A stretch of DNA of 64,000 bases from the IMG/VR virus record IMGVR_UViG_3300028197_001229, positions 21,106 to 85,105 of that record; one strand, given 5' to 3'. The translations under genes were made by a program, and so were the position numbers. Under the pieces are notes generated by a model that was not told where the DNA came from, ran no database searches, and saw only the letters and a program-made list of their open reading frames with translations. Source of the stretch: a virus. Shown here piece after piece: positions 3,294 through 60,492 of the stretch (its first letter is position 1; each line of letters begins with the position of its first letter).

Positions 3294-5514
3294 TATCTAA
3301 GTCGGAAACCTCAATGGGCCCACTACGGCTCTCGTATGTAAACGCTTTTAAATCTAGAGCCAGCCTAATAAATTGAGCTCCAGAATAAGCTAAGTTTTCC
3401 ACATTATTTTCGGTTATTGTAAAGTCAGTACACTCTGTACGTATTATGTGATTTATAATCTTAGGTAGTAGTACTTTGAAGTATATAACATAGTCGTAGT
3501 TTAAACTAAAGTTACTAACGTCTAAACCTTCATCACAAAATATAAAAACTCCATGTTTGTAAAAATCGTGACAGTTGTCCTCACTAAAACAAACTACTGG
3601 GTAACCTTCTATCTCTTCTATTTTAGTACCCTTAGATCGAGTATTAGTATTTAATTCTAATACAGAAGTTTGTCCGAAAACTTCGAACAACTGTATTAGT
3701 AACTTTCTAGATTTTGTACTATCTACCAACCTTACAGTTGGAATATCCCACTTCATATAGGACCGACACAACATACCTACTAATAAGGACAATATAAGAT
3801 TTAATTTTGAATCAAACTTTAGCTTATTAGACTTAGGTAGCATACTGTAATCATAGTTACTAAAAAAAGAACGCTCCGGATGTGGCGTAGCAGTTCGTTC
3901 GGTTACAGTAAAACCAGAAGCTTCCCAAGCAAAACTACGAAAACTAGATCTATCGTCAGACCAACCCAACCTAGCTAGTCCGAATTCTGCTTTGGCAGAA
4001 TTAGCTTCCTGCAGTAATATGTTGTTTAAATATTTGGCGTACCTTGTATCGTAAATTGTGGGTAGTTTAATATTCTCGTTAGTGTCACTAGTAAGTGCTT
4101 TCGTTAAAACTTTTATGACTTCGTAAGGCTGCTGTAAAGTTCTCTTAGAAAACACTACATCTTTAGCGACATCAGATATGTAGGCCGTGCCTTTATAAAA
4201 AACATCTGAACTATTTTTAAACACTAATGTCCTCTTAAGTATTATTGTGAAATTAGTAATAGGTATAGACTCACCATTAAGATCTACATGGTAACCATCC
4301 ACAGTACTCCCCACTTGTTTACCTAATGCTCTGAAGTTTTTATTACTCCGTATAATCTCCTGCCCTGCTAACTCGAGAACTTGTTGTCGTCCAGATTGTT
4401 TTAATTTTTCTATAATCTCAGATCTTATAAGTGCATCTGTAAAAGCGTGACCCATAAATTTAGTTATAGATTCCGTATCTTCTGATTTTTTAGTCAATAG
4501 ACTAAAGAAACTATTAACAACTTTTGCCCTACAACACTTACTTAGCTTAAATGGTTCTAAATAAATATCGTTAGTAATACGTACTCTACTGGCATACTTA
4601 AAATAAACCATCATGCTAGCCAATACTTTACAGTTTTCTGCCGAAACAAGTAATGTCGGTAGTCTGTCGGGCTGTAGTGAGTAACTAAAACTTTTACCCT
4701 TCCTTACACTATTCTTCCTAGACAGTAAAGTGCCGTACCCATTTCGGCTATGTTTCACCATATTATGCCTAGCGTGAGCGAGTTGTGTTATATCATCACA
4801 TATTACGCATATTTGATTATCAGGAGGCATAGTGTGGTAACCTAAGTACCCATGTGCAAATTCTGATTCATAAACTAGTATAAATTTACCAGATACAATA
4901 TCTTCTACAACTACAGAAGCTAAGGTGTGATAACTTGTGTGGTATGTATAAACTAGATAATCACTGCTCGTTGCTACTTTACAAATTTCTTTGGTAAAAT
5001 CTTTAGACTCCCATAAACTTATAAGCTTTTTAAGAGAATCCCCAGACATATAAAACAAAAATTGAGGAATGTTCCCCTGTAACATGTTCTTATTAATTAA
5101 ACTCTCTTTTACAGTTGTAGGTATTTTGATACTTTTCGAACACTTAGCGAACACTCTATTAGCCAAACTAAGGTCTTTCAGATATAGTGCTATATCGTTT
5201 TTCCACCACAATAACGTAGAAGCAACAGTAGGATCAGCACTATCAGAGCTTGCATCTAAGATAGACTCTACAGACTCTAAGTAACTTAGACCCTTTACAT
5301 AAACAATTAGATCAACTATATTGCCATACTGAAACTCAGGATTATAAAACTGTGAAACCAATTCCTTACTTAATACATAAAACGAATTACCAGGATTCTT
5401 TGGATCTTGGAAAACTGGTATGTGGTTTACACTGTTTAGTTCTACTAAACCCAACTCCTTACACACAGCATAGGGCGACCGAAGATCAAAAAGCATATTG
5501 ACTTTAGTGCGCAT
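3268..5514 (-). CDS. Degenerate primase/helicase-like protein (CHC2-finger-like N-terminus, DUF927-like middle)
   Basis: 748 aa; 'YGNIVDLIVYVKGLSYLESVESIL' matches the post-zinc-finger helix pair of DnaG-type primases; 'PITNFTI...GLARLGW..F' is DUF927-like; no intact Walker A. Confidence 0.4.
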   Translation of the reverse strand: MRTKVNMLFDLRSPYAVCKELGLVELNSVNHIPVFQDPKNPGNSFYVLSKELVSQFYNPEFQYGNIVDLIVYVKGLSYLESVESILDASSDSADPTVASTLLWWKNDIALYLKDLSLANRVFAKCSKSIKIPTTVKESLINKNMLQGNIPQFLFYMSGDSLKKLISLWESKDFTKEICKVATSSDYLVYTYHTSYHTLASVVVEDIVSGKFILVYESEFAHGYLGYHTMPPDNQICVICDDITQLAHARHNMVKHSRNGYGTLLSRKNSVRKGKSFSYSLQPDRLPTLLVSAENCKVLASMMVYFKYASRVRITNDIYLEPFKLSKCCRAKVVNSFFSLLTKKSEDTESITKFMGHAFTDALIRSEIIEKLKQSGRQQVLELAGQEIIRSNKNFRALGKQVGSTVDGYHVDLNGESIPITNFTIILKRTLVFKNSSDVFYKGTAYISDVAKDVVFSKRTLQQPYEVIKVLTKALTSDTNENIKLPTIYDTRYAKYLNNILLQEANSAKAEFGLARLGWSDDRSSFRSFAWEASGFTVTERTATPHPERSFFSNYDYSMLPKSNKLKFDSKLNLILSLLVGMLCRSYMKWDIPTVRLVDSTKSRKLLIQLFEVFGQTSVLELNTNTRSKGTKIEEIEGYPVVCFSEDNCHDFYKHGVFIFCDEGLDVSNFSLNYDYVIYFKVLLPKIINHIIRTECTDFTITENNVENLAYSGAQFIRLALDLKAFTYESRSGPIEVSDLDIKSFENQA

Positions 5515-12767: not shown

Positions 12768-14992
12768 AAATTAAAAAAATAACACTTAATAATTTCGGTA
12801 TACATCGAAATTTATCATTTGAGATTGGAGATGCTCCAGTTGTTGGTTTACTCGGCAAGAACGGATCTGGTAAAAGTACAATACTAGATTCTGTAAAGTA
12901 TGCACTTACAGGTGAGATCGAGGGAAAAATAGAAGATTCAGTAACAATAGGTGAGAAGAAAGGTTTTGTTGAATTACTAATAGAAAAAGACGGAGCTAGT
13001 ATACGCATAAAGCGAGAGGTAGGTAAAACACCCAAAAAAGAATTCGAGAAAGACGGTAAAGTAGTAACTAGCTCAAAAGAAATTGAGAGCGAAATACAAG
13101 GAATGTTATCTGTTGATAAAAAAGCATTGTCCAATGCCTGTTTTCTAAAACAAGGTAGTTTAAATGACTTGTTGTTTGGTACAGAATCCTCGCGTGAACA
13201 GTTGTTTATAAAGCTAGTCAATCTCTCGTTCTGCGAGAGATATGCAGCAGTAGTAGATACAAAGCTAAAGTCATTACAGGCAGGTGTTGAAGATTTACAA
13301 GGCTTGACTGACGAAATAAACATTCAGCGTATGGACTCTATTGTAGAGAAAGAACTGCTTGAAAAACAACTAGCTAGAGTAACTGACTACAAACCTATAA
13401 CATCTGTCGTTTACGAACAGATCAGGCTTTCGGATGAAAACGAAAGACTATCTAGAGAGATAACACTGATAGGGTCCGATGATAAACTTACTAAAACTAC
13501 AATCGGTACTATTAACCTTAGGTGGAATACTGTGGACAGAATACAACTTGAAGATAAGTTAAAAGAATCCAGAAATAGTTCAACAGAGTTATTGCAGAAA
13601 AAATCTAATGTAATTAGTGAAAAAAATGCAAAAATACGGTATGAAAATACCCTACAAAAAATAACAGAAACTAAAAATGAAATCGAAGACCTAGAAAAGT
13701 TAATTACTAGTAACGATACTAGTCTAGAGCAGTTAGTTATACCAGATACTAATATAGAAGTTTATAAAAAAGAACTAGACGATGCTAAAGACTCAATAAA
13801 AAAACTAGGTATGTTACTATCAATATATCATACGTGTGACAGTGAGTCTGCAACGTGCCCTACATGTGGGTCAGATATATCCAGTAAATTAAATTCTGGA
13901 GATGTCGAAACTTGGAATAAAGAACTAAAAATAGCAGTTGCAGATAAAGGATCAGTAGAAGTTAAAATAGCAAAAGATACCGAACGGTTCAGTAACTATG
14001 AACTCACCAAACACAACCTGATGTCGGAAAACCAAATAAATAAAATACGTTTGGAACATATGACTAAGGATTTTCACCGATACACCGAAAGTATGGTGAG
14101 CTTAATGGATGGTGCCAACATAGGTAGTAAAGAAAAAGAATTAGAAACTATAAACCAAGCTATAAATGAACAAGATGCTACTGTAAAACTATTGGAGCAA
14201 GATCTGTATAGAGTTATCGAGGCCGAGACAAAGCTTGCAAACAACAGCAGCTTTGTAGTTAGTAAGAAAGCTATGCTAGACTCAAATCACACAAAAAGTG
14301 TAACAAACTCAAAAAACATACCTGAGTTTTTAGAGTCTCTAAACCTTAGTGATTTTATAGGACTAGATAATGAAAAATTAATAAAAGAATTAGAATGCTT
14401 ACAGTTACAACGGTCGGAGGCTGAGGGTAGGTTAAAACAAGCTAGTGAATCATTTGATAAGATAAATAACAGGTATGCTGAGGTACAAGACAGAATGACT
14501 AAAAATAAAAGTCGACTGGCTGTTGCTGAAGAGTTACGTGAAATAAAAGAAATTTTATCAAAAAAAGGACTACCTAGCGCTTACATAGCTCACAAGTTTA
14601 CGATACTAGCAAAACTCACATCAGAAAACCTGACGATTCTAAATGCTGATTTTACAGTAGATATAGATCCAGACGCTTTTCTTTCATTCGTTTTTGAAAG
14701 ATTTGACGGAAAAGATATGGTGCGGTTGCCTATGAACAGACTGTCAGGTGGACAAAAAGTACGATTGTGTATTGCATTCTTACTGTCCGTACAACAAGAG
14801 CTCGTACCAGATATAGGTTTCCAGACATTTGACGAACCGTCTACGCATTTAGACGAAGATGGCGTCGAAAGACTATGTTCTATGTTTAAGAGTTTACAAG
14901 ACTTGTTAAGGTGTATAGACCATCAAGTGTGGGTGTGTGATCATAATCCTTTACTTGAAGAATCTTTTAGTACAACCTTAAATCTGCAGTGA
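12764..14992 (+). CDS. sbcC: SbcC/Rad50-like SMC ATPase
   Basis: Walker A 'GKNGSGKST', Q-loop 'FLKQG', coiled coils with zinc hook 'CPTCG', signature 'LSGGQ', Walker B 'FDEPS', H-switch 'CDHN'. Confidence 0.92.
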   Translation: MKIKKITLNNFGIHRNLSFEIGDAPVVGLLGKNGSGKSTILDSVKYALTGEIEGKIEDSVTIGEKKGFVELLIEKDGASIRIKREVGKTPKKEFEKDGKVVTSSKEIESEIQGMLSVDKKALSNACFLKQGSLNDLLFGTESSREQLFIKLVNLSFCERYAAVVDTKLKSLQAGVEDLQGLTDEINIQRMDSIVEKELLEKQLARVTDYKPITSVVYEQIRLSDENERLSREITLIGSDDKLTKTTIGTINLRWNTVDRIQLEDKLKESRNSSTELLQKKSNVISEKNAKIRYENTLQKITETKNEIEDLEKLITSNDTSLEQLVIPDTNIEVYKKELDDAKDSIKKLGMLLSIYHTCDSESATCPTCGSDISSKLNSGDVETWNKELKIAVADKGSVEVKIAKDTERFSNYELTKHNLMSENQINKIRLEHMTKDFHRYTESMVSLMDGANIGSKEKELETINQAINEQDATVKLLEQDLYRVIEAETKLANNSSFVVSKKAMLDSNHTKSVTNSKNIPEFLESLNLSDFIGLDNEKLIKELECLQLQRSEAEGRLKQASESFDKINNRYAEVQDRMTKNKSRLAVAEELREIKEILSKKGLPSAYIAHKFTILAKLTSENLTILNADFTVDIDPDAFLSFVFERFDGKDMVRLPMNRLSGGQKVRLCIAFLLSVQQELVPDIGFQTFDEPSTHLDEDGVERLCSMFKSLQDLLRCIDHQVWVCDHNPLLEESFSTTLNLQ

Positions 14993-15474
14993 TACTTGAA
15001 GTTAAAATAATTTTAACAACAAACTACTTAGGTGGTGGACCCCGGGTAAATGGGGTCCGCCAGTTAAGACGTACTCACGACAACAGACTTGCTGTTAACG
15101 AAAAAGAATGGAAAGAAGATATGGCGGCAGCAGCAGCAGATTTAAAGTTAGACTTTAATAAGAACAGTGTAAGTTTAGAGCCGGGTATAGACTTCCCAGA
15201 AGTTAATGTACTAAAACGAGTATATAATAAAACAAATGTAGATCTGTTTGAAGGTGTATCAGCGGGTAATGAATTAGTATTCTCTGTGCGAATTAATGAA
15301 AATTTAGACAACTCACCAACAAAAGAAGATTTAATAAAAATATTTACCGTAGTTGGTAAGTTTATAGGTATATCCCAATTCGGTAAAAAGTTCCATTGCG
15401 GGAGGTTCACAGTTAAAACAATAATCATTTTAGGAGAAAAAGATTTTAATGTTGATAAAGATATTCTGGTTTAG
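14989..15474 (+). CDS. Stand-alone RAMP (Cas7/Csm3-like RRM-fold) protein
   Basis: N-terminal strand 'VKIILTTNYLGGG', helix 'EKEWKEDMAAAA', 'FEGVSAGNELVFSVRI' (E-x3-G-x3-F strand) and C-terminal G-rich loop 'GKFIGISQFGKKFHCGRFTV' follow the RAMP pattern. Confidence 0.6.
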   Translation: MILEVKIILTTNYLGGGPRVNGVRQLRRTHDNRLAVNEKEWKEDMAAAAADLKLDFNKNSVSLEPGIDFPEVNVLKRVYNKTNVDLFEGVSAGNELVFSVRINENLDNSPTKEDLIKIFTVVGKFIGISQFGKKFHCGRFTVKTIIILGEKDFNVDKDILV

Positions 15475-18857: not shown

Positions 18858-19865
18858 ATGGAAACTAATAATACGGAAATGGAACTTTGTGTTATAATGA
18901 ATAAATTTTTTAAAAGAGGAGATTGGATACCTGATGCTTTTAAGAAAATATTTAAACTAAGATCCGGGACAGATTTACCAACATGTGTGGTATTTAGTAA
19001 AATAGTATATTGGTTATCTCCTAAAAAAAATGGTAAGAAACGATACTATGGTAAACAGTTAAAATTAAGTGTATCCAATATTTCCGAGCAGACCTACTTG
19101 TCAAAAAAACAAGTTAGTCATGCTATGGAAAAGTTAGAAAAAAAATATAAGTTTATTAACAGAACAGTAAACGGTACGACAGTTTATGTTAGTCTAAATG
19201 TAGAGATAATAGAAAAAGTTTTAGAAAATAGCTTTCCAAATATGTTTAGCAAAAACGAAGTAGCTATACAAATTTGTAACACTCATATACATAAAGAACA
19301 GCATAGACCATTTCTTTCTAAGTTTCCGAAGGGAGTAACTGAACTTAATTATTGTGACAAAGATCAAATTATCGAAGAGGTTGAAAAATTAGAAATTGCT
19401 TTGAATACGAAGCAAAATGAAAAGTCTATGTACTCAATGTCCGAAGATAAATTTTATTCAATATGTAGAACTACAAAATACGCTTTAAGAGAAAAGCTAA
19501 ACTATATGTCTGAAGCTGAATTAATAGAGGCTTTTATAGTTGATGACGAATCGTCTTATCCAGCTTTCTCTAGATTTGTGTTTTTGTACAATAGTTTGTA
19601 TGAGCATTACGTAGGTTATCTTACAAGTAATGACGCTGAGTTTAAAAACTTGTTACAAACTGTGTCAGTAGAGTGCATATCAAATTTAGATGTGTACAGT
19701 AATTTATTAGTAGCATGTAGGGGTTTGGACGTAAAGTTGTTATCCGTTACTAGTGTAGCCGATTTAAAGTTAAAAAATAATTTAAAATTAACTACGCTAG
19801 AATCAGAGATAAAAACTTACGAACAAACCCTGTGCTCATTACGACAACATTTAACGTCGATTTAA
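18858..19865 (+). CDS. Winged-HTH DNA-binding protein, possibly a replication initiator
   Basis: 'VFSKIVYW...LSVSNISEQTYLSKKQVSHAMEKLEKKYKFI' resembles the N-terminal wHTH of phage initiators; lies directly after dnaB. Confidence 0.5.
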   Translation: METNNTEMELCVIMNKFFKRGDWIPDAFKKIFKLRSGTDLPTCVVFSKIVYWLSPKKNGKKRYYGKQLKLSVSNISEQTYLSKKQVSHAMEKLEKKYKFINRTVNGTTVYVSLNVEIIEKVLENSFPNMFSKNEVAIQICNTHIHKEQHRPFLSKFPKGVTELNYCDKDQIIEEVEKLEIALNTKQNEKSMYSMSEDKFYSICRTTKYALREKLNYMSEAELIEAFIVDDESSYPAFSRFVFLYNSLYEHYVGYLTSNDAEFKNLLQTVSVECISNLDVYSNLLVACRGLDVKLLSVTSVADLKLKNNLKLTTLESEIKTYEQTLCSLRQHLTSI

Positions 19866-19869
19866 AAAA

Positions 19870-20259
19870 ATGGGATTCTTTTCATGGAATTGTGTGGCCT
19901 GCAATAAGGCCTTTATAAGTGCGTGTAACTTTGATGAAAAAACAAAGTGGGCAGCAGAAGTAACAGTAGCTCTCTACTGTAAAGCTTACAGATCAACACC
20001 AGCTACTATTATACATGGTATATATGACGGTTACGGTGACGTTGGTTCTGGTGAATTTAACTTCCTTGATTGGGATACATCTCAGTATCCTGACTACAGA
20101 GCATTTCATACTACTTGCTGGGAGTTACTAGATGAGCCTGAGTTAGTAAAAGACTTGTCTTTTTACAAACCCAATCAATCGGCAGATAACCAAGGTTATT
20201 TTTTATCCGAAAGTGAGTGGGTAGACTTAGAAGACCAGCCACGACTAATACTTCACTAA
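19870..20259 (+). CDS. Hypothetical phage protein
   Basis: 129 aa, 'MGFFSWNCVAC...GIYDGYG'. Confidence 0.6.
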   Translation: MGFFSWNCVACNKAFISACNFDEKTKWAAEVTVALYCKAYRSTPATIIHGIYDGYGDVGSGEFNFLDWDTSQYPDYRAFHTTCWELLDEPELVKDLSFYKPNQSADNQGYFLSESEWVDLEDQPRLILH

Positions 20260-33596: not shown

Positions 33597-33645
33597 CTTT
33601 ATTTCTCGCGCCACACGCTGACAAAAGACTGGAGCAATTCAGTCT

Positions 33646-33677
33646 AAAACCCACGGTTTTATCGCTGTGGGTTTTTT
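33646..33677 (+). terminator. Rho-independent terminator
   Basis: aaaacccacgg...ctgtgggtttttt; preceded by GCAA-tetraloop hairpin agactgga-gcaa-ttcagtct. Confidence 0.7.
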
Positions 33678-33715
33678 GTCTTTACAATTAACTTTTAATC
33701 TATCATTTATATATC

Positions 33716-50463: not shown

Positions 50464-50800
50464 TCCAGAAGAAGATGACGAAAATAACGAAGAAACTGAT
50501 ACTCCAATTCTAAAACGATGTGTTGTTGAATATGAGTTTCCTGAAAAGGGAGTGACTATTCGTGAAGAAATGACAATCACGCAGACAGGAGGTATTTTCG
50601 GGGAGAAAATTGCTGAGATCAAAGTTACCGAAGGTGACCAATCTGAGCCTAATGTATTTTGCAAAATGCCTGTACCTCAATGGGTGGGTAGGCTACTAGC
50701 TGTAGTTAGTAAAACATGTAACGCATCATCTCCAGAAAATATGAATTCAAAATCTTTGGAAGAAATTAAACCTATTCACAAATATATATTTAAACGATGA
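50456..50800 (+). CDS. Hypothetical protein
   Basis: 114 aa, GTG start. Confidence 0.5.
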   Translation: MYNPEEDDENNEETDTPILKRCVVEYEFPEKGVTIREEMTITQTGGIFGEKIAEIKVTEGDQSEPNVFCKMPVPQWVGRLLAVVSKTCNASSPENMNSKSLEEIKPIHKYIFKR

Positions 50801-51174
50801 AAAATACATATCCACAAGCCATACCTAACGATCCTCTACCTGACAACTTTTTACATCATATCGGGGGAGCTGTTCGTGGTAAAATGAAAACAGTTTATCA
50901 AGGCCGTGAAGCCGAGCACTATCCATACTACATTCATGATGTACGTATGCTGGTCCAGGGTACTAAGAACGTAGATAACCTTAGAAAGTTTATTGAAAAT
51001 CATAAACGTATCTATGGTTACGCTGACGGTCCGTTTCTTGGTATTTATAATTTAGAACAATACGAGATTACCGAGAACACTATTGGTATAGTTAATGACA
51101 AAGATCTGCGAAAGCATGTTAAGCAGAAAATGGCCGAAGGTGCCATGTCTGATATACCTAGAAATATTGTATAA
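50797..51174 (+). CDS. Hypothetical protein
   Basis: 125 aa, ATGA overlap. Confidence 0.55.
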   Translation: MKNTYPQAIPNDPLPDNFLHHIGGAVRGKMKTVYQGREAEHYPYYIHDVRMLVQGTKNVDNLRKFIENHKRIYGYADGPFLGIYNLEQYEITENTIGIVNDKDLRKHVKQKMAEGAMSDIPRNIV

Positions 51175-51177
51175 CAA

Positions 51178-51195
51178 CGTGTTATATATATTTGA
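51178..51195 (+). promoter_or_regulatory. Recurring intergenic motif (CGTGTTATATATATTTGA) preceding the ncRNA
   Basis: Consensus match immediately upstream of the long non-coding unit. Confidence 0.65.
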
Positions 51196-51755
51196 GTGAC
51201 ATCGTTCCCGGGGTTCTCTTTAGATATTATTTCCTACGTTGGTTCGTCTAATGACAAGACACGCTTATGGTTATTAGGTAAGAGCTATACTGAATGTGAT
51301 ATCGTTGACTACTAGAAAGGTAAAATAGTAGCTTACTTTATTGCACCATCTATACGAAATGAGATAAGGGTTGCACGGACTACAAATAAACTGGAGCCGG
51401 ACTTAAGCAATCAGGTTAACCGTAGTTCAACCCAGATTATATTCTACGGAATATAGTCAGGTGATAATGCAAGTAAGTCCATCCCTGTTCGACAATATCA
51501 ACAATCCTTCTGCACGCACAGAAGAACGTTGTGCGTTCGAGCATAATGTAAACTAGGCAACTAATCCCTCACCGACGTAAAGGGTGCTATCATACTTAGC
51601 TCGAACGCAAGACCAATCAGCGCGTGCGCGGTTTGTTTTGATTGTAGCACATAGTGTGTATAGCACCCTAAAATTTAAACAAAACTGATTTCTCATCCCC
51701 GAGAATACCTCGCGGGGTAGTAGGTCCTCATTATGCCTGCTACCCCGTTTTTTTT
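51196..51755 (+). ncRNA. Large structured non-coding RNA of unassigned class (~550 nt)
   Basis: No ORF of 60 aa or more in any frame; many nested helices, a cUACGg tetraloop and a GNRA loop; bounded by the promoter motif and a strong terminator. Confidence 0.7.
51713..51755 (+). terminator. Rho-independent terminator
   Basis: CGGGGTAGTAGG / CCTGCTACCCCG + T8. Confidence 0.85.
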
Positions 51756-51857
51756 AAATTTTTATATATTAGAAAAATTGTACATATGTACATGGTACTG
51801 ACAGTTAAATAAAAAGCTTGTCAGGATGTAAAAAATCGAACAATTATTAAAATAACT

Positions 51858-52517
51858 ATGTTAAATGAAAAAATAAAATTACCGTGTTATACTGCCACGT
51901 TTAAAATTCCATATAAAACTTACATGGCTACCTTACAATTGGGTATGTACGAAACTACATCCCGGCTAGTTAATAGCAATTTTGTATATAGGACTCAAGA
52001 ATGTGCTGGTGGTCGTAGGAAAGCATTGGATAAAGTGTGTAATTGGTACTGGGATAAGTACAAAGGAGCTTGGGGACAGGCTCACGAGATAATGGTTTTA
52101 AACGACCCTTATATGGAAGTTATGTACAATGACGATTTTAATTGTGCAGATAAACTCAATCGTTACTTAGATGATGAAACCATTGATAAGTTATTATCTG
52201 ACTGTAACGAAGAGCTAGTACGTGAGGACAACGATACGTTTGGTAAACACCACCCTCGTAATTCGGTAAAACGTAAAAAAAGGCGTAGAGTATATCTCGA
52301 ACATATTGGCGATGGTTTATACCAGCATCCCAATACTAAAGTTATGTACTTTAGGGACACTGTAATTCCGCAGATTACACATAATGGTTCTAAGGGTCAT
52401 CCTGGTGAATACATTCAAAAACGAAAAGTCAAAGACTTCAAGCTTATGTCTAAGAACATAGAAAAAGCTATAAACGAAGTACAAACAAGGTTTGGTCATG
52501 CAATTAGTTTGGGATAG
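51858..52517 (+). CDS. Hypothetical protein, basic C-terminal half
   Basis: 219 aa, A-rich leader. Confidence 0.65.
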   Translation: MLNEKIKLPCYTATFKIPYKTYMATLQLGMYETTSRLVNSNFVYRTQECAGGRRKALDKVCNWYWDKYKGAWGQAHEIMVLNDPYMEVMYNDDFNCADKLNRYLDDETIDKLLSDCNEELVREDNDTFGKHHPRNSVKRKKRRRVYLEHIGDGLYQHPNTKVMYFRDTVIPQITHNGSKGHPGEYIQKRKVKDFKLMSKNIEKAINEVQTRFGHAISLG

Positions 52518-53335: not shown

Positions 53336-54297
53336 AAACTATATTGATAACAGGCGGTGCCGGCTTTCTAGGAAGTCATCTATGTGACAAGTTACTAACC
53401 TCATCCGGAGATATTCATATTATATGTATGGATAATTTATTTACGGGTTCAAAGGATAACATCAATCATTTACTTGGTCATCCTAGGTTTGAGTTCATGA
53501 GACATGACGTAATTGATCCATTTAGACTTGAAGTGGATGAAATATATAACTTGGCATGTCCAGCATCTCCTGTTCATTACCAGTACAATCCATTGAAGAC
53601 TGTACAGACTTCGGTAATGGGTATGATTAACGCTCTTGATGTTGCTAGTGAGACTGGTGCTAAGATACTTCAGGCAAGTACATCTGAGGTCTATGGTGAT
53701 CCTGATGTTCACCCACAACATGAATCATATAATGGTAACGTAAATCCTATTGGACCACGTGCATGCTATGACGAGGGCAAGAGGTGTGCTGAAACGCTTT
53801 GTTATGATTATTTTAGGGAGTATGAGGTAGATATACGTGTAATGCGTATATTCAACACGTACGGGCCTAGAATGGACCCTGATGACGGGAGAGTAGTATC
53901 AAACTTTATAGTTCAAGCTTTGAAGGGAGAAGAATTAACTATATATGGGGATGGTTCTCAAACGAGATCATTCTGCTATGTAGATGATTTACTGGAAGGT
54001 ATGGTAAGACTAATGAACTGTACCAGAGATGAACTACGTGAACATGCTAACAGTGGACCAGTTAACATTGGTAACCCTGATGAGTTTACTATAAAGCAAC
54101 TAGCTGAACTAATAACGGATAAGATCAACCCGGGTGCAATGGTAAAAGAACTACCGTTACCTGAGGATGATCCTACTCAACGACGACCAGACATCACACG
54201 TGCTAAAGACATGTTAGACTGGAAGCCAACTATCAATTTGAATGATGGCTTAGATAAAACAATAGCGTACTTTGAAAAACTATTAAGTAACGAGTGA
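53332..54297 (+). CDS. uxs: UDP-glucuronic acid decarboxylase (UDP-xylose synthase), extended SDR
   Basis: '[12 protein letters not shown]', 'LACPASP', '[10 protein letters not shown]', 'CYDEGKR', 'RIFNTYGP', 'GRVVSNFI'. Confidence 0.9.
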
Positions 54298-54546
54298 GCT
54301 CTGACACACTGTTTTTGTGTGCAATAGTACTCTTACTTGTATTGTACGCTATAGATGTAATAAGGTAAGCGTACTACTTAAGTAGTACTTTGCTTTGATA
54401 TGTATTGATATATCATTGTAGCTGTCTGTAATGATATGCTACAATGGTATGTTAGTATTATGATATTAAATGATATCTGTTATGATAGTATTGAGATATA
54501 CTATGATACTAATGATATGTTATGATATAGAAATTAACTAAATACT
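54298..54546. other. Non-coding tract of hairpins followed by ~10-bp-spaced TGATA repeats
   Basis: 18-bp palindrome GTACTACTTAAGTAGTAC (54371-54388), hairpin CATTGTAGC/GCTACAATG, nine exact and two variant TGATA copies between 54396 and 54527. Confidence 0.6.
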
Positions 54547-54795
54547 ATGAATAAAGGAAATAAAGGAATTACTATTAGTGAGTCTAGGTATTACGACCAG
54601 GGTGTTATAGACGCCAAGGATGCTATCGTTAGAAACCTAGATGATAAGATACGTAGGGAGATGGCTACCGCTGCTGATAAAAGTGGAAGTTCGGATTCAA
54701 GGTTGCTGGCCCCTGTAAGACTAAACTTGTTACTTAGTTTACAAGATGAACTAAATACTGTGTGTATTGACATATATAAGCCGAACAATGTATGA
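54547..54795 (+). CDS. Hypothetical protein
   Basis: 82 aa. Confidence 0.5.
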   Translation: MNKGNKGITISESRYYDQGVIDAKDAIVRNLDDKIRREMATAADKSGSSDSRLLAPVRLNLLLSLQDELNTVCIDIYKPNNV

Positions 54796-60252: not shown

Positions 60253-60302
60253 ATTTATTAAATAACATGGGCCACTATTGCCCGGTTGTTTGAGTTGGAA
60301 AG

Positions 60303-60337
60303 AAAGCTCATCTCGCATCTGAGGTGAGCTTTTTTTT
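60303..60337 (+). terminator. Rho-independent terminator
   Basis: aaagctcatctc-gcatct-gaggtgagcttttttt. Confidence 0.8.
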
Positions 60338-60371
60338 ACTTATGAGCTCCTGTGTGACTGACTTTTATTGT

Positions 60372-60400
60372 TTGACGAAAATCTATATATTTGGCACAAT
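60372..60400 (+). promoter_or_regulatory. Sigma70-like promoter
   Basis: TTGACG-N17-CACAAT with TGn extension; the spacer contains TATATATTTGG, half of the phage motif. Confidence 0.45.
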
Positions 60401-60492
60401 TAGTGTTATGACGGTGGATTGACCGTTAATGTTACTACATAAGAATAGCGTACTTATGTCGCAGAAAAAATAACAATATAAAAATAAAGAAT

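Follow-up and report, generated by a model that had tools for sequence, protein, structure and literature searches.

A candidate gene for a large, structured non-coding RNA in an uncultured marine phage lineage

The DNA analysed here, referred to as the window, is a 64-kb stretch comprising bases 21106–85105 of the 85-kb IMG/VR record IMGVR_UViG_3300028197_001229, which is rated 48% complete and belongs to a phage of an uncultured marine lineage. The element under study is a non-coding stretch of this window that is predicted to be transcribed from the + strand as an RNA of about 550–557 nucleotides (nt), from an inferred start at 51199 to the T8 tract of a terminator ending at 51755. Upstream lies a + strand gene for a protein of 125 amino acids (aa; 50797–51174) with no Pfam or PHROGs family, and downstream lies the open reading frame (ORF) 51858–52517 (+ strand, 219 aa). 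All neighbouring genes have the same orientation as the RNA unit, which is present as a single copy in the 85-kb record. Two transfer RNA (tRNA) genes, tRNA-Arg and tRNA-Met, lie 2.5 kb upstream of the RNA. On the evidence presented below, we consider it fairly probable that the stretch constitutes an independent gene whose product is a stable and highly structured non-coding RNA (ncRNA) of ~550 nt, representing a small new family, encountered so far in one lineage of uncultured marine phages only.

The interval between 51175 and 51857 (683 nt) contains no ORF of at least 50 aa in any of the six frames, and no gap of this kind in the window is longer, in agreement with a preliminary description of the window. 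The next-longest ORF-free gaps measure 305 nt (at the window end), 249 nt, and 240 nt. TAA, TAG, and TGA are present in all six frames, and the sparsest frame, on the minus strand, holds 1 TAG, 2 TGA, and 10 TAA codons. Coding under an alternative genetic code was rejected, as reassignment of a single stop codon does not open any frame. Also rejected was a conserved small ORF at the RNA start: the 39-aa frame from 51196 spans only 18 codons in L011, a metagenome contig of 8 kb that contains a partial homologue of the RNA.

A 19-nt promoter motif, GTGTTATATATATTTGAGT (51179–51197, + strand), is located directly behind the stop codon of the upstream gene (51174). With up to three mismatches allowed, the motif has four copies in the window, all on the + strand (31896, 43047, 51179, and 56597), compared with a mean of 0.5 in 100 shuffled sequences, none of which reached four. 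The same motif is found behind the homologue of the upstream gene both in L011 and in G001 (IMGVR_UViG_3300009103_000004; 167 kb, 94% complete), a phage with a positional counterpart of the RNA. This recurrence and conservation support the promoter proposed earlier for this site. The enrichment is confined to the 19-nt motif, the short word CGTGTTATA alone giving 21 matches versus 18.5 expected. The motif in its 16–19-nt form, GTGTTATATATATTTG(AG), also occurs in G001, G002, and L011, and the recurrent motif hints at one co-regulated gene class.

Within the promoter motif, TATATTTG (51187–51194, + strand) corresponds to a −7 box of the TAnnTTTG type found in Bacteroidota sigma-A promoters; the comparison concerned the −7 box. 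The TAnnTTTG consensus of these promoters is described at positions −12 to −5 (PMC9723704), which would place the transcription start near 51199. The type of the −7 box also suggests that the host is a marine Bacteroidota bacterium. A second exact CGTGTTATA word is present at 51883–51891, within the 5′ end of ORF 51858–52517, which makes the ATG at 51925, with a promoter of its own ahead of it, the probable true start of the 219-aa gene.

The unit ends with an intrinsic terminator (51713–51755, + strand) consisting of a 12-bp stem, an 11-nt loop, and T8. The two arms (51713–51724 and 51736–51747) are 92% complementary, the stem has eight G–C pairs, and T8 occupies 51748–51755. The lone non-Watson–Crick pair is a U–G pair, which exists on the + strand only. 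A scan of the 64 kb for T runs of at least six behind a hairpin yielded six sites. The lowest energy among them (−23.1 kcal/mol) belongs to this terminator, so that the terminator recognized in the preliminary description is the strongest in the window. A separate terminator scan was limited to loops of at most 8 nt, and the present terminator, with its loop of 11 nt, is not listed there. The only other convincing + strand intrinsic terminators are located at the gaps 33597–33715 and 60253–60492 (T runs at 33672 and 60330), where they probably mark operon ends. Collectively, the stretch shows the generic features of a structured ncRNA gene: it is free of ORFs and has its own promoter and its own terminator.

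When folded from 51196, the + strand has a minimum free energy (MFE) of −172.6 kcal/mol (z score −6.05), and none of 100 shuffled sequences folds as well. The − strand has a z score of −3.92; together with the terminator U–G pair on the + strand only, this upholds the earlier assignment of the RNA to the + strand. The central domain (51292–51506), folded alone, gives a z score of −4.24, with none of 200 shuffles as good, and most of the 3′ domain (51525–51672) gives −4.15. The first 105 nt alone have no local fold (z score +1.77) and are predicted to pair distantly, through a 9-bp helix and an end-to-end closure. The overall picture drawn in the preliminary description, a promoter-to-terminator, ORF-free unit with a highly structured predicted product, is thus borne out.

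The closure is formed by the helix P1, in which a 5′ strand (51204–51218, + strand) is paired with a 3′ strand (51697–51711, + strand) directly before the terminator. In the MFE structure, P1 consists of GUUC/GAAU and CGGGG/CCCCG, with pair probabilities of 0.8–0.9. The preliminary description had joined the same two places in a different register, GGGGUUCUC/GAGAAUACC, which is the one mirrored in L011. The second distant pairing is a 9-bp long-range helix (51235–51243/51571–51579, + strand; probabilities 0.83–1.0) that joins the 5′ leader to the 3′ domain. Indeed, 51571–51579 is the best duplex partner of 51235–51243 in the whole RNA (−13.4 versus a mean of −3.8, standard deviation 2.0).

Two domains are enclosed between these ends. 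The central multi-helix domain (51292–51506, + strand) is closed by 51298–51308/51489–51499 and contains a 10-bp hairpin with a UACG loop (51435–51458). The 3′ domain (51507–51672, + strand) comprises a hairpin (51507–51524), a hairpin with a GCAA loop (51554–51563), and two interleaved perfect helices, of 11 bp (51532–51542/51599–51609) and 10 bp (51581–51590/51660–51669). Two or more perfect Watson–Crick helices of at least 10 bp occur in 0.9% of 2000 dinucleotide shuffles (P = 0.009; 0.14 expected). The isolated duplex energies of these two helices are −19.1 and −15.8. The nested MFE structure takes the 10-bp helix, and forcing the 11-bp helix costs 8.7 kcal/mol. Since the two helices interleave, they are candidates for either a pseudoknot or alternative structures forming a switch. 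Nearly all of the helices listed in the preliminary description are confirmed: both perfect helices exist in the sequence, and the MFE structure includes the UACG hairpin, GGGUUG/CAACCC, CUUACUU/AAGUAAG, CUACUA/UAGUAG, CUUCUG/CAGAAG, UAG-GCAA-CUA, and, with 10 of 11 positions paired, GAUAU.GUUGA/UCGAC.AUAUC. CAAUCAG/UUGAUUG is absent from it, as this stretch pairs in another register.

Perfect inverted repeats of 10 and 11 bp would be equally workable in DNA, and P1 doubles as a terminal inverted repeat, albeit an imperfect one. The repeats could accordingly be read as DNA hairpins or dyads belonging to a transcription-activated origin or to a packaging or recombination site. The transcription-primed origins of T4 and T7 resemble such a promoter-headed, non-coding build. 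We nevertheless regard a DNA-level element as highly improbable, given that no direct repeats, iterons, or tandem repeats are present, that no AT-rich unwinding stretch lies inside (the GC content of the RNA is 0.42 versus 0.38 for the genome), and that the cumulative GC skew does not turn at the stretch. In addition, the asymmetry of G–U pairs between the strands and the RNA-type UACG and GCAA loops point to an RNA. A replication origin in particular was rejected on the lack of a GC-skew turn, an AT-rich core, and repeats.

The comparison at the DNA level rests on two sequences, the partial homologue L011 and the positional counterpart in G001. Gene order in L011 follows that of the window on both flanks (13 ORF pairs by BLASTP, 18–60% identity), and tRNA-Arg and tRNA-Met genes lie upstream, as in the window. 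Over its first ~110 nt, the transcript is 75–79% identical between the two phages (74.6% identity over 130 nt, E value 8e-19; 79% over query positions 5–99, E value 1.9e-16), and only one position differs in the alignment of the promoter and first transcript bases. This 5′ leader (51199–51291, + strand) is the only part with sequence conservation outside the phage; past it, the L011 sequence is unalignable with the window. As in the window, the leader of L011 has no local structure of its own (z score +0.23), and the consensus fold of the two leaders reaches −4 kcal/mol.

The closing helix recurs in L011, where the leader pairs with AGAGAAUAUCCGGG at 4429–4442 through 13 pairs (p 0.6–0.99), CCCGGG-GUUCUCU/AGAGAAU-UCCGGG. 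The GAGAAUA core of the 3′ P1 strand of the window recurs at these positions, and a weaker copy of that strand lies at about 3822–3832. On this reading P1 is kept in L011, with two pairs changed from G–C to G–U or the reverse; these one-sided changes are consistent with pairing and are not compensatory. For the 9-bp long-range helix, the counterpart in L011 is ambiguous. A 13-bp perfect hairpin followed by a U tract (3844–3915) resembles a first terminator, and L011 may therefore be read as a first RNA of ~400 nt followed by a second non-coding module. The first unit of L011, from promoter to first terminator (3513–3918), folds with a z score of −4.52.

In G001, the slot is located directly behind the homologue of the 125-aa gene (32–35% identity) and begins with the same promoter motif. 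Its first 545–548 nt or so end in a 12-bp hairpin and a U tract and fold with a z score of −4.65, so that all three promoter-to-first-terminator units fold below chance (window, −6.05; L011, −4.52; G001, −4.65). The GC content is 3–4 points above that of the flanks in all three. The G001 island thus resembles the window unit in its slot, its promoter, its paucity of ORFs, its fold, and its terminator. In contrast, its BLAST likeness to the window is limited to the promoter, it gives no match to covariance models of the two domains, and it continues into a second non-coding module headed by a 93-nt element that is absent from the window.

Several features of this second module were observed. 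The 93-nt element is 98% identical between L011 (L011:3908–4000) and G001 (L010:8413–8505, minus; G001:C1:120413–120505), phages whose neighbouring proteins are 30–66% identical, and it is absent from the record of the window. In both L011 and G001 it follows directly after the first terminator-like hairpin. Alone, it has z scores of −1.6 and −1.2 and no Rfam match, and it could be either mobile or strongly constrained. The second module extends ~550–600 nt behind the first RNA (L011:3905–4500; L010:7940–8495, minus) and folds weakly (z score −2.37 in L011 and −1.39 in G001). It is followed by an ORF of 407 aa in L011 and 289 aa in G001, which share 31% identity over 51 aa (E value 5e-4) and have no Pfam or PADLOC family; the window has neither the module nor the ORF.

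These relatives also bear on whether the stretch acts in cis, as a leader or attenuator of the downstream gene or as the 3′ untranslated region of the upstream operon. Mutually exclusive helices, namely the 11-bp helix on one side and the 10-bp helix with the long-range helix on the other, would then switch between termination and read-through into the 219-aa gene. The shared orientation with all neighbours and the lack of a terminator between the upstream gene and the RNA are in line with such a role, as are the two long helices, which are incompatible in a nested fold and give alternatives 8.7 kcal/mol apart. However, the terminator is very strong, and nothing in the predicted fold competes for its stem. 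The promoter-like CGTGTTATA word at 51883 lies before the next gene. Moreover, in L011 a ~600-nt non-coding stretch and the 407-aa ORF stand before the homologue of the 219-aa gene, and G001 lacks this gene, which was found in none of the records of three IMG/VR relatives of the phage. The downstream gene is therefore not a fixed companion of the RNA. Known attenuators are far smaller than 550 nt. Taken together, a cis-acting element is quite unlikely.

The same comparison can be read as fast-evolving filler, in which an operon-end spacer or decayed genes lie between a conserved promoter and leader and a terminator, and the structure has no function. Between phages with 56–60% identity in their flanking proteins, the interior can no longer be aligned, the length to the first terminator varies (about 400, 545, and 557 nt), L011 and G001 carry the extra module that folds poorly, and the fold of the window unit has a z score of only −2.5 against native windows. 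Yet the phage genome is tightly packed, and a promoter-headed unit devoid of ORFs is nevertheless maintained at this slot in all three lineages, with all three units folding at z scores of −4.5 or lower. The two perfect long-range helices (P = 0.009) and the closing helix that recurs in L011 also argue against this reading. We regard filler as unlikely, albeit less so than a cis-acting element.

Several further observations weigh against a stand-alone structured RNA. With 156 native 560-nt windows from this phage as background, the fold has a GC-corrected residual of −27 kcal/mol (z score −2.5) and ranks 3rd of 157; it lies below both the shuffled and the native background but is not outstanding against the latter. 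P1 of the window is weak (about −10 kcal/mol), and its register differs between the MFE structure of the window and L011. The 5′ block of L011 can pair well with several segments, the third at about 4018, so that the choice among them is ambiguous. The lone leader pair changed on both sides, seen in one partial homologue, belongs to the weak −4 kcal/mol consensus fold. Conservation does not extend to the interior: a covariance model was built from the window sequence alone for the central domain (R1) and another for the 3′ domain (R2), and both are unmatched at the expected places in L011 and G001, their best matches (E values 0.04 and 0.23) lying elsewhere. Conservation of the leader could reflect a DNA-level or leader function rather than a folded particle. 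No specific partner or target is indicated, the longest antisense match being 13 nt, and the five listed runs containing the stretch include no RNA run.

Two other native windows have residuals as good as or better than that of the RNA, 54001–54560 (−31.8 kcal/mol) and 19601–20160 (−28.2 kcal/mol). The former spans a 249-nt non-coding gap (54298–54546).

The RNA belongs to no catalogued family. At gathering thresholds, Rfam yielded only two tRNA matches in the whole window, and at E values up to 10 over 51000–52000 it yielded seven weak hits, none of which is GOLLD, ROOL, OLE, HEARO, or raiA; the best of the seven scored 20.1 bits against a gathering score of 60. Membership in GOLLD (RF01998) or ROOL (RF03087), which the preliminary description had considered, was accordingly rejected, as neither covariance model matches even at E values up to 10. 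Its statement that the hallmarks of transfer-messenger RNA (tmRNA), RNase P, and introns are lacking agrees with the absence of matches to any such Rfam model. Known ribozymes, OLE, HEARO, RNase P, and tmRNA, as well as self-splicing group I and group II introns, were rejected for want of a meaningful Rfam match. An intron is further contradicted by the upstream protein, whose five aligned homologues all end at the same conserved RNI(V/T/I) C-terminus, and by the downstream 219-aa gene, which was not found in G001 (94% complete) although G001 holds the upstream gene. An antisense regulator of the phage's own genes was rejected as well, the longest complementary run in the 85-kb record (13 nt) being at chance level.

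A partnership with a solo RAMP protein, also raised earlier, found no support. The 161-aa ORF in question (14989–15474) lies 36 kb from the RNA and matches none of the Cas/RAMP families of PADLOC at E values up to 0.01; its only Pfam match at E values up to 1 is FSH1 (E value 0.24). The RNA itself has no direct or tandem repeat units, in contrast to what would be expected of a CRISPR/Cas7-RAMP partner RNA. A brief literature search returned no prior description of the RNA, which is not a claim that it is absent from print. A 2023 catalogue reports more than 10,000 viral structured RNAs, with IMG/VR motifs of 29–151 nt present in at least three unique regions (PMC10690425), and it may include a fragment of the RNA.

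Homologue searches returned few relatives. A blastn search with 51150–51800 against 50,697 GenBank phage records gave nothing, and neither the DNA polymerase of the phage nor the 125-aa upstream protein had a match by tblastn in the same records. Scans of IMG/VR with the two flanking proteins were also empty. The DNA polymerase search identified three family-level IMG/VR relatives (72, 60, and 44% identity), among which the slot is present only in G001, and two profile scans (A1 and A5) returned only G001 again. An exact-pattern scan of IMG/VR with the leader had no matches. In 185,579 species genomes, the leader pattern had two hits, both judged to be chance: a terminator palindrome in a Dehalococcoidia bin and a GC-rich Planctomycetota stretch. 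The upstream protein has three homologues in a set of 5.8 billion proteins, with identities of 94% (P0001, on a contig of 1117 nt), 78% (P0002, on a contig of 581 nt), and 56%; the last is on L011, the sole result of the single metagenome scan.

Identical DNA, with zero differences, is present in contigs of three additional marine metagenome runs belonging to two separate studies. These contigs cover the stretch only in parts, with no variants where it is covered. The phage is therefore real and recurrent, which says nothing about the RNA.

Many stable trans-acting RNAs protect their termini by pairing the 5′ end with the bases that adjoin the terminator hairpin. The predicted paired ends of the present RNA, located next to its terminator, accordingly resemble the build of a stable trans-acting RNA rather than that of an mRNA leader. 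In the stand-alone RNA gene that we favour, the transcript would close on itself through P1 and the 9-bp long-range helix, and this closure would frame two compact domains, the multi-helix junction and the possible pseudoknot domain of 11 + 10 bp, which would do the work. The conserved leader and P1 would represent the constant portion of the RNA, with the domains of the interior open to replacement. During infection, the RNA may act in trans as a folded particle, providing either a scaffold or a decoy for some factor of the host or the phage and possibly self-assembling as GOLLD and ROOL do. This scaffold or decoy function is a best guess, carrying at most about a third of the likelihood given to the RNA gene itself; a binding role is proposed because the GOLLD and ROOL analogues form cages, no antisense target was found, and the interior changes fast.

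The cage-like structures of GOLLD and ROOL were solved only recently, and their function is described as unknown (10.1101/2024.12.08.627333). According to the same account, GOLLD is encoded by both phages and prophages, frequently close to tRNA genes, one example comes from a marine metagenome, downstream of a tRNA-Met, and the GOLLD structure, a 14-mer cage, is supported by covariation and cryo-electron microscopy (10.1101/2024.12.08.627333). The RNA described here is like GOLLD in that both exceed 500 nt, have many helices, are phage-encoded, and have a tRNA gene nearby; GOLLD has pseudoknots, and here there is a candidate only. Both also have one conserved and one less conserved part, which in the present RNA means that only the leader and P1 are conserved. 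However, the conserved part is 3′ in GOLLD and is the 5′ leader here, and the GOLLD cage has been seen by cryo-electron microscopy, whereas the present RNA is known from its sequence and predicted fold alone. ROOL has a size of about 580 nt, and the present RNA is similar in size and likewise phage-encoded. Unlike ROOL, which is widespread, it is known from the window with one partial homologue and one positional counterpart, and it has no Rfam match. ROOL, which contains multiple pseudoknots, is encoded close to tRNA islands in phages and prophages and is reported in that account to have no known protein partner or function (10.1101/2024.12.08.627333).

A further reading, which we hold only tentatively and consider rather unlikely, is that the RNA represents the first of a new class of large phage RNAs with a constant frame and exchangeable folded interiors. 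The frame would consist of the conserved 5′ leader and the closing helix set against the terminator, and related marine Bacteroidota phages would fill it with different interiors, in the present case the junction domain and the 11 + 10 bp pseudoknot domain. If this is true, a modular, fast-changing RNA particle would fit a role in an arms race, for instance in titrating a host defence or translation factor as a decoy or sponge; alternatively, it might form a self-assembling shell like those of GOLLD and ROOL. A conserved frame with a variable interior, if real, would be an unusual mode of evolution for a large RNA. The scarcity of relatives limits the value of the RNA for now. The RNA is compact (~550 nt), has clear ends, and could be made in vitro without the uncultured host. 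Large structured phage RNAs such as GOLLD and ROOL are among the least understood RNAs, and each new family would offer a further way in.

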